A stretch of 64,000 bases of DNA from a phage. The number at the start of each line of letters is the position of its first letter. Within the stretch, counting starts at the first letter, position 1. Below, piece after piece: positions 11,301 through 14,300 of the stretch. The stretch lies in the sequence record PZ674595.1; one strand, 5' to 3'. A program made the position numbers.

Positions 11301-14300
11301 CGATAATTTGTTTTGCAAGAAGACATAACTCATCATGTTGATTTAATAAGGAATCAAACCATTGTTTAAATGCACTCTTTCGCATTTCGAACAATGATTC
11401 AGTTGTTAATTGAAGGGCTGAAAAAGCTGCTTTTGCACTTTTTCTCGCTTCGTAGGCATTCCATGCTGTTGCTATAAAAGCAAATGCTGTAGCCAATGTT
11501 CCAACAGTTTGACCATTTAAAACAACCCAATCCCAAAAAATGACGGTGAGCAGTAGTATAATAATGAAAATTAAAAAAGGCATGTATGTATTTCACTCTA
11601 CTAACTATAAAATATTAGGCTAATGTTAACCAAACAATGCCTTAATTAATAGATTGATCGAGGCTTTAATAGCTTTATAATGCAGATTGCAAAGATAAGT
11701 ATGCACACACCTATCTTCTTTGTAAGTAAAGTTGCATATCAATTCTATGAGGTAACAATGACAATCACTATCTACGGACGAGATAACTGCTCATACTGCA
11801 AACGTGCGGTCGAGCTGGCGAAGCAACTAAAGGGACATGGCTACGGTGATTATGAGTACATCGACATCACTACTGCCGGTATCGACAAGGAAAAACTTAG
11901 TGAAATTGTTGGTAAACCGGTAGAGACTATCCCCCAAGTACTGATCGATGGTCAACCGATTGGCGGATACACAGAACTGGCTGCATACGTCAGCACCCTC
12001 TGATTTTAACGGCTCACAGGAGCCGTTTTTTATTCCCACCAAACTCACTCCTGTTTCCCTTAAAATTCAAAAAACAACGTCTAAATGATTCCATACCTAC
12101 TATGTATGGAATCATTGCTGAAAATGAGTTACTTTTACTCTTGATCCTATAAGAATCTATGCCTAATATACTGTTTACTTATACAGTGCATCGGCGTAAC
12201 TCGGTGATTGTCATATGAAAAATAGCTTTGACAGAGCACGCGCTGCGGAGAACACCTCAAAAGAGGCGATAGAGTATCTCGAAAGAGCATCTCAAATGCA
12301 GGCCGTTATGATCTCCCAGGTCAGCAATGACATGAGATTCTCGGACGCATTCATGTTATTCACTCGCTTATCTCTGCTGATAACCAGACGTCGGCCAGAG
12401 ATCGCTGTTCATTGTATTTTGATACATGTTTTGCCGCACATTGCCGATGTAAAAGTAAGTGACATTAATAGGTTCATGGTGAACCAACTGGTCAACCCAC
12501 TAATACTGGATGGCAAAATTGTTATGGGCCGCCGCGTTTTCTCTCTGATGAAGCAGTTCCTTAGCTGGTGCGCCTTCCAGGGGATGATAGACGTGTCACC
12601 GTTAAACGATATGTCACTTAACAAAGTTGCCGGTGGCGCAAAGCCCACACCTCGCGAGCGGAAGCTGACCGACGCAGAGGTATGGGTGTTCTGGAATATA
12701 TGGGACTACTTCAATGTGTGTGCTGGTACAAAATGGGCGGCCAGGCTATGTCTTGTATCCGCAAGACGACCTGACGAAGTACTGCGGGCTAAAAAAAGTG
12801 AGTTCAATCTTAAGCGTGGGGTTTGGAATCAAGGCAAGAGGAACAAATCTGCCCGTGAGCATTCTCTGCCTTTAAGCTCATTAATGCGCACTTGTATTGA
12901 AGAGTTGTTCGAATATGGTAAAGACAGCCAGTGGCTCGTGCCTTCGAATAAAAAAATCGGGAAAGACCTTCCTATGTCTAAAGTGGCAATAGCCCAGGCA
13001 TTACGTCGTATTCTGGAACGACCAGAACTGATGGAGCTTGAGCCATTTACACCCCGAGATTTGCGCCGTACTGCGCGTAGTTACTTCCCAGCATTAGGCA
13101 TAAGCCAGGAGGTATCACGTAAAATCATGAACCACAGTCTTGAGGGGATAGATCGGGTCTACGACCGGCACGATTATATGGACGAGATGCGAGACGCCTT
13201 AGAAAGTTTCTCGACGTACATCGCATCAATCGTAGAGCAACCGGATTTAGACGAAATTGACCACAAATTTAAGGGAGATCGTCTATCAACAGAGCTTATT
13301 CGTGTAAATTTTTCATAGAGACTTTATGGCCTCAACAACCTTTTGTGATGCGCCTTTCTCTTTACCGAATCGCTCGTTATATGCAGCAAGAACCTGTTTT
13401 TCGTCCTCGTTAAGAGGAGCAGTGCCTTCTTTGTATAAAAATGCTGCGAGTTCGGGTTGGCGTTCTTCCAGCACCATCATCATAAGACGACTTGGCTCAA
13501 TACCCAGTGCCAGCGCCAGCGGACGAACCTTATCGATAGGCAAAGGAATTTTGCCGCTTTTAATTAAAGAAAGGTTGTTGGCGTTTTTATACCCAATTGT
13601 TTTGGCTATCTGGGCCTGGCTCATAGGTGAGGATTCAATCAACCCTGCGATAAAAGCAGCGTAGCGACTTTCTATAAATTCAATCTTGTTATCAGACATG
13701 GTTACAACCTTTGCGCGTTCAATTCTCTCTGGTAAGTGCTTACCGATATTACATCAAAGGTTAGGGTTGTAAAGCTATTATCATTTTTTTCGATAGGCAC
13801 TTAAAAGACCGGTTAAAGGCCATTGCACGGAGAAAAATTAGCCCAAAACAGGTAAGAAAATCAACTTGCATATGATATGAATGTATTCAGTATTGATACA
13901 AATTTTAGTAGTATTCCTTACCATAATATAAGTTAGAATGGATTGATTGAATGAACACCACTATTTCCAGCCTAATCGCTCTTGAGATCGGACACGTACA
14001 GAAATTAGCTGATGAGTGTGTAGCTGACATCCTCACCGATCTACCGAATGAGCAGATTCAGGTTGGTGTGAATGACACAACTGGATTTATATTCGAACTT
14101 AACAACAAACGCTTCACGCTTCTCAATACCGGCTCCGGGTCTTTAGCCGTCAGAATCTGTTAACCCCTCTTCTCCCTGCGCGAATGGCTTAGTTCCCTGT
14201 TCGCGCAGTGCTACATTAAACACACTAGTAAATAATTTGTTTTCATAACAAAGGATTAGCCATGTCTAAAAAACGTTCCATCAAAGAGGTTCAGGACTTC

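Follow-up and report, generated by a model that had tools for sequence, protein, structure and literature searches.

The 64,000-nucleotide stretch of phage DNA analysed here (sequence record PZ674595.1; the whole stretch is called the window) belongs to a phage-plasmid of the SSU5/pECOH89 type: a temperate phage maintained as a circular plasmid of ~110 kb at low copy number. It carries a gene for a tyrosine recombinase, int, and, upstream of that gene, a perfect palindrome in which two 13-bp arms flank a 7-bp spacer. Our best reading is that Int and the palindrome probably constitute a Cre/loxP-like multimer-resolution module under SOS control. Recombination at the palindrome, resolution as the selected function and direct binding of LexA to the int promoter are all inferred from related sequences and published expression data. 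Because statistics within the window are insufficient by themselves, the case for this function rests on comparison and context.

A perfect palindrome upstream of int

An earlier note on this DNA, made from the sequence alone, had pointed out a 12-7-12 inverted repeat (ATGATTCCATAC-CTACTAT-GTATGGAATCAT, 12085-12115) with the geometry of a tyrosine-recombinase core site. The repeat is there as described, and one further matching base on each side turns it into a 13-7-13 palindrome whose two arms we propose as binding sites for Int (Table 1). It ends 98 bp before the int start codon at 12215. The note had placed it in the int leader; relative to the predicted int promoter it lies at about -93 to -61, upstream of the promoter and outside the transcribed leader. 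The chance expectation for a perfect repeat with 13-nt arms within 40 nt is ~0.04 per 64 kb. Three other perfect palindromes were found in the window, and the one at int is therefore non-random but not unique. Folded as a single strand it reaches -11.2 kcal/mol (z = -5.4). Rfam gave no match at the palindrome or at the dispersed single-arm copies described below.

Two other roles for the palindrome were considered and rejected. The first was as terminator of the upstream glutaredoxin gene, which has a terminator of its own (12008-12027); the palindrome is kept whatever lies upstream, and no T-run directly follows it. The second was as operator of the XRE-type repressor encoded next to int, since the palindrome is also retained in places without an XRE gene and the repressor has its own conserved palindrome.

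On the int-distal side, the palindrome is accompanied by a conserved A/T-rich element at a fixed spacing of ~10 bp from the left arm (-25 to -10). Of 63 distinct flanks, 27 have the motif CAGA precisely at -25/-24, among them flanks of both arm classes defined below and of a Pantoea context with a solitary Int. This may be an accessory or bending element; by-eye inspection found no convincing match to an IHF-type consensus in it.

The arms vary together with the recombinase

We retrieved 75 related loci through the protein and then scanned them for the palindrome and its flanks; five distant contexts of Int homologs were also retrieved, from Providencia, Xenorhabdus, Pantoea and Photorhabdus among others. 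In 76 loci whose Int is 84-100% identical, the arms are identical (ATGATTCCATAC/GTATGGAATCAT), and the sequence to the left of them is often unrelated. A homolog with 60% identity retains the TGATTCCATAC arms (class 1). In locus L077, with an Int of 56% identity, the outermost base is changed in both arms, symmetrically (TTGATTCCATAC...GTATGGAATCAA). Next to Int homologs of 44-50% identity, in Providencia, Xenorhabdus, Pantoea and Photorhabdus, both arms have switched in parallel from TGATTCCATAC to TGACTCCAGAC (class 2). The palindrome reads ATGACTCCAGAC-TACATAG-GTCTGGAGTCAT in Providencia, ATGTGACTCCAGAC-GTAGTTA-GTCTGGAGTCACAT in Xenorhabdus and TGACTCCAGAC-TTATTAG-GTCTGGAGTCA in Pantoea, and is present as an imperfect version in Photorhabdus. 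Across all loci it lies upstream of int, at a distance of 41-101 bp, and always has a 7-bp spacer.

The association was also seen in the reverse direction. When public collections were scanned by the palindrome pattern alone, 79 metagenomic and 8 viral stretches were recovered, and for 80 of these 87 palindromes the start of an Int homolog lay at a distance of 41-101 bp. Of the remaining seven, six lie on stretches that end within 130 nt of the site on one side, which leaves 80 of 81 informative cases and a single orphan. The orphan (L176, positions 5271-5299 of IMG/VR UViG_2791355157_000004) is a class-2 palindrome, TGACTCCAGAC-CTCGTGA-GTCTGGAGTCA, with CAGATTT in its left flank and no int within 5 kb.

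On a 507-kb megaplasmid of Pantoea vagans (L084, CP028350.1), Int and the palindrome stand alone among genes for TonB receptors and PagP, with no phage genes and no XRE gene nearby. A sub-clade with such a solitary Int-plus-palindrome unit was observed in Pantoea, Rahnella and Erwinia, on replicons of megaplasmid size (large contigs of P0056, P0060, P0072, P0074 and P0079). The arms thus co-vary and travel with Int, and not with the repressor or with other phage genes, and because they co-vary with Int we take site and protein to belong together. Since the pair is found by itself on non-phage megaplasmids, a function in plasmid maintenance is indicated rather than a phage-specific one.

The spacer is constant in length and free in sequence. 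More than 20 variants were seen, which include five pairs related by exact reverse complementarity (CTACTAT/ATAGTAG, CTATTAA/TTAATAG, CTATAGA/TCTATAG, TTATATA/TATATAA and TAATTAC/GTAATTA). In locus L040 and PhiR41_1, at least 120 nt of flank on either side match except for one base, and the spacers stand in opposite orientation, which marks the spacer flip as a discrete and recurrent event. It could arise by template switching at the perfect hairpin, or by mis-aligned recombination at a site with symmetric arms. Since flips are tolerated, the spacer is under no constraint to face one way or the other within the surrounding DNA. Such freedom fits a site whose only partner is another copy of itself, the situation in multimer resolution, and not an attP, in which the core is read with reference to arm sites. 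Inverted arms of 11-14 bp, an asymmetric spacer of 6-8 bp and specificity for the adjacent enzyme characterise the sites of simple resolution systems such as Cre/loxP and ResD/rfsF, and the 13-7-13 palindrome has all three.

Int resembles an active recombinase without an arm-binding domain

The int product matched Pfam Phage_integrase (PF00589) with 40.6 bits, above the cut-off of 27.1, as well as PHROG 1 'integrase'. In an alignment of 17 family members with 6 outgroups, R185, R284 and Y316 do not vary and K211 and H307 hardly vary, within a family that was followed down to 43% identity. The note had remarked on an Arg in place of the usual His in box II (RDLRRT); the alignment confirmed this as a family-wide trait, with Arg at the His-I position in all 17 members, His in five of the six outgroups and Arg in the sixth. 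Non-His residues are found at this position in some active tyrosine recombinases.

The Int family, reaching down to ~44% identity, is without the ~100-residue N-terminal arm-binding domain PF13356, which the nearest outgroups (at most 34% identical) carry. An AlphaFold2 model (pLDDT 86) has an all-helical N-terminus, in which short helices replace the arm-binding domain. The top solved folds in Foldseek were lambda Int (1z1b/1z19; core-binding and catalytic domains), Tn1549 Int, XerH and IntI, and then Cre. A sequence search of the PDB gave no match at E <= 1, and in NCBIfam Int matched a generic integrase domain weakly and no IntI model. From its sequence, Int looks like a catalytically active, simple tyrosine recombinase, and it descends from P4/lambda-type integrases that lost their arm-binding domain.

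An extrachromosomal element with a single candidate resolution system

Among 5,426 complete E. coli genomes, 252 contain the int region, in 255 copies that are all on plasmids; the exact 35-bp site is found once per plasmid and never on a chromosome. PLSDB holds 933 plasmids with an Int homolog, mostly non-mobilizable, from Klebsiella, Escherichia, Enterobacter, Pantoea, Yersinia and Salmonella. SSU5-type elements have been described as exclusively extrachromosomal (PMC9600943), and Escherichia phage Cyrano (pLF82), which is 98% identical to the region, is a plasmid of ~5.5 copies per cell (PMC9928086).

These counts bear on classical integration, in which an attP with the palindrome as its core would recombine with a chromosomal attB, possibly a tRNA gene. 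The earlier note had raised an attP next to the tRNA genes as an alternative and had proposed the search of host genomes as a check. Int is indeed nearest in sequence to P4/lambda-type integrases, and tRNA genes lie 2-2.6 kb away. However, neither gene nor site was found on any of the E. coli chromosomes, and an attP/attB pair was rejected on this ground. The missing arm-binding domain, the perfect symmetry of the arms, the spacer that flips freely relative to its flanks and the element's own replication and partition functions also argue against integration, which we consider highly improbable and strongly disfavour. Among the functions that the note had offered, integration thus falls away and multimer resolution is the one we favour.

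On a near-identical plasmid that is available in full, genes were found for RepA, for ParA/ParB-like proteins and for a RecA homolog (the recA-like gene of the replicon is at 26203-27276 of the window). No other site-specific recombinase was found on this plasmid, no serine resolvase is annotated there, and no dif/cer/psi-like Xer site was detected on the replicon. We favour multimer resolution because the element is always extrachromosomal and has neither another resolvase nor an Xer site. It has been proposed that phage-plasmids may resolve dimers by recombinases, with no site given (PMC7969092).

In the mechanism that we envisage, two Int monomers would bind the identical arms, and cleavage and strand exchange would take place across the asymmetric 7-bp spacer. 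Int would in this way convert multimers produced by homologous recombination to monomers, leading to stable segregation of the prophage-plasmid, and it might also circularise incoming DNA. In the Escherichia/Klebsiella/Yersinia clade, host LexA would repress the int promoter, allowing a modest basal level of Int and a boost during SOS that would coincide with RecA-driven recombination and prophage induction.

The often unrelated sequence to the left of the palindrome raises a different idea, an integron-like platform at which circular cargo is inserted or exchanged under SOS control. At least 14 different left flanks join the same palindrome and right flank, and LexA control has a parallel in integron integrases (PMC3108266). 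In Cyrano, the moron CYRAN_43 (L001 3444-3998), whose expression in lysogeny is 723-fold above the prophage background, abuts the palindrome (PMC9928086). However, each replicon has one full site, no attC-like second site flanks the cargo, Int falls outside the IntI models, and homology breaks ~25-30 nt to the left of the arm, outside the spacer, with the conserved flank element persisting. The ISEcp1-blaCTX-M unit of the window was inserted elsewhere, via transposition. Between single-arm site B and the palindrome, relatives differ by scattered indels, by at least two insertion slots and by the number of tRNA genes, none of it bounded by Int sites; since this variation takes the form of scattered indels rather than site-bounded cassettes, we regard capture as very unlikely. 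Which genes occupy the slot between grx and the palindrome differs from relative to relative; in the window this slot is empty.

Probable SOS control of int

The hexamers of the putative int promoter and their 17-nt spacing are kept in Klebsiella-type relatives, in which the spacer sequence varies; the promoter falls below the threshold of a simple promoter scan (8 of 12 matches). The LexA-like box that the note had reported at this promoter begins at the last two bases of the -10 hexamer. Of its 20 positions, 16 agree with the E. coli consensus of 20 nt, and seven of its eight central bases are A or T. The CTGT-N8-ACAG pattern alone is not significant in the window (2 found versus 0.8 expected; at least 2 in 18 of 100 shuffles). 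Among 78 class-1 loci, 76 have a CTG-N10-CAG box between the palindrome and the int start, 72 of them with the full CTGT-N8-ACAG, and variation in the box is restricted to the central 8 nt. The whole ~111-kb replicon contains only two LexA-type boxes, one at the int promoter and one at a umuD/humD-like gene for an S24 peptidase. The latter box (TACTGTATGAATAAACAGTA, 58437-58456) is near-consensus and lies 20 bp upstream of the gene (58475-58864).

For expression we used published RNA-seq of strain LF82 under five conditions, with approximate log2 values (PMC9928086, supplementary tables). The int ortholog CYRAN_44 was at 5.6 in lysogeny broth (LB), at 7.9 and 6.1 after 1 h and 6 h in Dulbecco's modified Eagle medium (DMEM), and at 8.9 and 10.3 after 1 h and 6 h in macrophages. 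In the same order, the values were 7.2, 9.7, 9.1, 11.3 and 12.2 for the plasmid S24 peptidase gene CYRAN_98, the Cyrano counterpart of the gene at 58475-58864, and 4.1, 5.4, 4.8, 8.2 and 8.9 for chromosomal umuD. In all three genes the five conditions rank alike, with a rise of ~25-, 32- and 34-fold, respectively, from LB to 6 h in macrophages; a ParA-like gene is flat and the structural genes are little changed. Basal expression of int is present, as its level in LB is ~5 times the prophage median. The co-induction of the int ortholog with umuD, although correlative, supports SOS control. Along with the co-variation of the arms, the fixed length of the spacer and the conserved LexA box, it supports the note's suggestion of an SOS-coupled site-specific recombination module.

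The convergent repressor gene and prophage induction

As the note had stated, a gene for an XRE-type regulator runs convergent with int; the two overlap by 6 nt at the int 3' end. The XRE product gave weak matches to PHROG 8 and Pfam HTH_19. Its ortholog CYRAN_45 is annotated as a 'putative repressor', is expressed in lysogeny and is regarded as the master repressor (PMC9928086). The palindrome GGTAAGTGCTTACC upstream of the repressor gene, conserved in relatives and distinct from that of Int, is likely the operator of the XRE repressor; AAGTAA-type repeats lie near the repressor in distant clades.

The LexA-controlled int promoter could, in principle, act chiefly as an SOS trigger of prophage induction, with read-through silencing the convergent repressor by transcriptional interference or antisense RNA and the recombinase incidental. 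We detected no S24 peptidase domain in the 128-residue helix-turn-helix repressor, which is therefore probably not self-cleaving, and the int promoter is one of only two on the replicon with a LexA box. For these two reasons, SOS-driven transcription through int could contribute to induction. The tail-to-tail overlap is kept family-wide, the only terminator-like hairpin after int falls within the repressor gene (13539-13555), and Cyrano, a close relative, is induced 39-fold by ciprofloxacin (PMC9928086). On the other hand, the convergent pair is also kept in clades without the LexA box, including distant ones, and repressor RNA rises with int in macrophages rather than falling, in a library that is possibly not strand-specific. 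Read-through is itself presumed, and an antirepressor encoded elsewhere may be involved. As the chief role of the promoter we consider this unlikely; it is compatible with multimer resolution by Int.

Single copies of the arm point at the palindrome

Three further copies of the exact 12-mer arm, which the note had missed, occur in the window, where ~0.008 would be expected by chance, and the unit that is conserved is a 15-mer (sites A, B and D in Table 1). The copies on the left are on the plus strand and that on the right is on the minus strand, so that all point at the palindrome. Site E, inside int, is degenerate in the window and an exact TGATTCCATACATC in Yersinia/Klebsiella-type relatives and in L077. 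No arm copy was found elsewhere on the 111-kb replicon, and the motif is restricted to ~13 kb around int. Essentially all class-1 relatives, down to 56-60% Int identity, have syntenic single-arm copies with drifting flanks, and the distance between site B and the palindrome ranges from 1.2 to 5.7 kb among them.

Site D lies in a dnaE-like gene. Its codons TGT-ATG-GAA-TCA are invariant in 26 haplotypes, and most neighbouring degenerate codons vary, a pattern that shows selection at the level of DNA. A coding constraint was rejected as the explanation of the single arms: synonymous positions are frozen, and the loop itself is not kept in the clade with the other arm sequence, which has an unrelated DnaE loop and no single arms of either type.

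One use for opposed copies would be a shufflon-like switch, in which Int recombines single arms in the style of Rci/sfx and inverts ~13 kb between A or B and D. A conserved 12-bp arm followed by 7 bp does resemble sfx sites (PMC11852207), and A and D share 19 identical nucleotides in the window. However, the 7-mers adjacent to the arm in A and D are identical in only 2 of 18 combinations and do not co-vary; no A x D inversion junction was present in 226 E. coli plasmids, and no hybrid A/B sites in ~75 loci. On these three lines of evidence A x D inversion was rejected as a common event. An inversion between A or B and D would, moreover, split dnaE. We regard such a switch as extremely improbable, and the single arms do not appear to be crossover partners. 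In their simplest reading they would be additional Int-binding sites with a regulatory or architectural role.

That reading can be pushed further, to an Int that is mainly a DNA-binding regulator or architectural protein, as is MrpR (YopR) in SPbeta, with the palindrome as an autoregulatory operator, the single arms as operators in the replication module, and recombination secondary or absent. Exact and clade-specific, the single arms are kept against synonymous drift and match the palindrome arm; the motif stays close to int, and the palindrome sits at about -93 to -61 of the int promoter. Repressors with a recombinase fold that bind a dispersed 15-bp element do exist (PMC10516654) and are among the weaker fold matches of Int. 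Against this, Int homologs down to 43% identity keep all catalytic residues, including the Tyr nucleophile, most of which MrpR has lost (PMC10516654), and a spacer of fixed length and free sequence is the signature of a crossover region, not of an operator. The distant clade and the megaplasmids have the palindrome without any single arms, so the palindrome-plus-Int unit functions without them. We hold a mainly regulatory Int to be improbable.

A dual-purpose Int is somewhat easier to entertain, though still doubtful. Induced by SOS, it would be both an active recombinase at the palindrome and the occupant of the four mirror-arranged single arms, with read-through from the int promoter also aiding SOS induction. 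If so, the array would provide a simple tyrosine recombinase with an accessory layer of a kind not described before, and might serve in long-range looping or architecture, as a polar barrier around the resolution site, or in control of the replication module at induction.

Several points weigh against a plain SOS-controlled resolvase of the Cre/loxP type. The evidence for recombination at the palindrome is entirely comparative or correlative, and the RNA-seq correlation covers five conditions, in which the repressor and CYRAN_46 rise too and the library may not be strand-specific. The exchange of His-I for Arg is unusual and may affect catalysis. A resolvase repressed until SOS is atypical, although the level of int in LB may be sufficient. 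The distant clade has no LexA box, and SOS control is therefore not intrinsic to the module but a lineage-specific addition. Neither the conserved flank element nor the conserved single arms are required by a Cre/loxP-type model, and both hint at further functions. Finally, SSU5 has lost the whole block and yet propagates, though as a lytic phage.

Comparison with known systems

The geometry of loxP and its adjacency to cre are textbook background. Cre/loxP of P1 shares with the present module a plasmid prophage, a single arm-less tyrosine recombinase and a site beside the gene that has 13-bp inverted arms and a short asymmetric spacer. Its role in P1 is multimer resolution (PMC7969092), and we presume the same here. 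By sequence Int is not recognisably related to Cre, which matches it distantly in fold (E ~0.02-0.07, 10-13% identity). The module also differs in its 7-bp spacer (8 bp in loxP), the Arg at His-I, the LexA box, the single-arm copies and the flank element.

P4/lambda-type integrases (PF00589 plus PF13356) are closest to Int by sequence (at most 34% identity) and by fold, and share the ...DLRRT context of box II. They differ in that Int has no arm-binding domain, no arm-type sites and a site with perfectly symmetric arms, and that its element is never integrated; the dispersed single arms repeat the core-arm sequence and are not a second, arm-type motif. XerCD/dif uses two paralogs at an 11-6-11 site with unlike arms, in contrast to the single recombinase gene, identical arms and 7-bp spacer here.

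For the extra arm copies, TnpI/IRS of Tn4430 offers a precedent, as that recombinase binds a symmetric core (IR1-IR2) and additional copies of the motif at which no crossover takes place (PMC2847244). Symmetric cores in TnpI/IRS lose orientation selectivity (PMC2847244), which is relevant to the flipping spacer. The accessory motifs of Tn4430, however, are one-sided direct repeats within a 116-bp site, whereas the single arms here are 0.7-7 kb away, on both sides, in mirror orientation and in part within coding sequence. MrpR (YopR) and SroF have an integrase fold and bind a 15-bp element dispersed in the phage genome (PMC10516654), and they gave weak fold matches. They have lost catalytic residues and do not recombine; Int keeps all of these residues, is LexA-repressed on our reading, and is not the lysogeny repressor. 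Neither TnpI nor MrpR matches the kilobase-scale mirror arrangement of the single arms.

IntI, with its LexA-controlled Pint, has the LexA box in the promoter and, on our reading, the coupling to SOS in common with int (PMC3108266), and its site likewise lies upstream of the gene and near variable genes. Int is not a member of the IntI family, and its site is a symmetric double-stranded palindrome without attC sites or cassette arrays. Rci/sfx has the same 12-bp arm, 7-bp core and 12-bp arm, and sites with one conserved arm occur there (PMC11852207); Rci is described as having an extra C-terminal domain, and the system differs from the present system, in which the full site is symmetric and inversion junctions were not found among the 226 plasmids. 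Distinctive here are the predicted LexA control, the Arg at His-I, the two natural arm specificities and the conserved polar array of single arms.

A search of the open literature, with subscription-only papers on pMT1 and pHCM2 outside its reach, found no description of the palindrome site or of the function of Int. SSU5/pHCM2/pMT1-type phage-plasmids are common in Enterobacteriaceae and include Yersinia pestis pMT1 as well as carriers of blaCTX-M-15 and blaKPC. An assigned site gives a testable account of how low-copy prophage plasmids escape loss driven by multimers, and also a target for their destabilisation. If activity is confirmed, the 33-bp site with its two arm classes (TGATTCCATAC and TGACTCCAGAC) could yield orthogonal recombination tools. 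SOS control would tie the handling of a plasmid-prophage genome to DNA damage, in parallel to integron integrases. The array of single arms in coding sequence is the most unusual part, and could reveal a new coupling of a recombinase to replication or induction.

Features and replicon context

Table 1. Features of the int region and the dispersed arm copies (positions in the window; a dot marks features without strand)
Feature	Position	Strand	Description
Single-arm site A	5285-5299	+	ATGATTCCATACATC; coincides with the start codon of a small membrane-protein open reading frame
Single-arm site B	9270-9284	+	ATGATTCCATACATC; intergenic, ~200 bp upstream of the tRNA cluster
Conserved A/T-rich flank element	12062-12075	+	AAAATTCAAAAAAC in the window; consensus ~yAGAwTTyAAAAAAc; int-distal side of the palindrome
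Candidate recombinase core site	12084-12116	.	13-7-13 palindrome AATGATTCCATAC-CTACTAT-GTATGGAATCATT; two proposed Int-binding arms and 7-bp spacer
Putative int promoter	12142-12170	+	TTGATC (-35), 17 nt, TAATAT (-10)
Predicted LexA (SOS) box	12169-12188	.	TACTGTTTACTTATACAGTG; CTGT-N8-ACAG at 12171-12186; overlaps the -10 and start region of the int promoter
Tyrosine recombinase Int	12215-13318	+	367 amino acids; PF00589; R185, K211, R281 (His-I position), R284, H307, Y316
Degenerate single-arm site E	12821-12832	-	TTGATTCCAAAC in the window; inside int, ~730 bp to the right of the palindrome
XRE-type helix-turn-helix regulator	13313-13699	-	128 amino acids; convergent with int, 6-nt overlap; putative master repressor
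Candidate XRE operator	13731-13744	.	GGTAAGTGCTTACC; ~30 nt upstream of the repressor start, conserved in relatives
Single-arm site D	18132-18146	-	ATGATTCCATACATC; inside the dnaE-like gene, encodes CMES in a variable loop

The region is 74% identical to phage-plasmids of Klebsiella, for example pJN2-26. E. coli plasmid NZ_CP020118.1 is collinear with the window except for a ~3-kb unit at 6001-8725, which it does not contain. This unit sits between a 96-residue open reading frame and single-arm site B and comprises an ISEcp1-type DDE transposase gene (6001-7263), a class-A beta-lactamase gene (7459-8391) and a 106-residue open reading frame; it corresponds to the CTX-M-15 cassette reported on the phage-like plasmid pECOH89 (PMC3999498).

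In the reference Salmonella phage SSU5 (JQ965645, at 42.5-42.8 kb), the block made up of the extra tRNA genes, grx, the palindrome, int, the repressor gene and a 70-residue open reading frame is absent, and CobT directly follows tRNA-Asn. Single arms A and D are exact in SSU5, and B has one change. The absence of the int-repressor block fits the behaviour of SSU5 as a lytic isolate.

Elsewhere in the window, a cspA-type thermoregulator RNA (Rfam RF01766, 186 bits) was found at 21679-22097 on the minus strand, ahead of a cspG-like gene. Another perfect palindrome, with 16-12-16 geometry (ATAATTGCACCATTAA...TTAATGGTGCAATTAT, 52776-52819), abuts the start of a 561-residue open reading frame that is annotated as DUF4942 in a relative.

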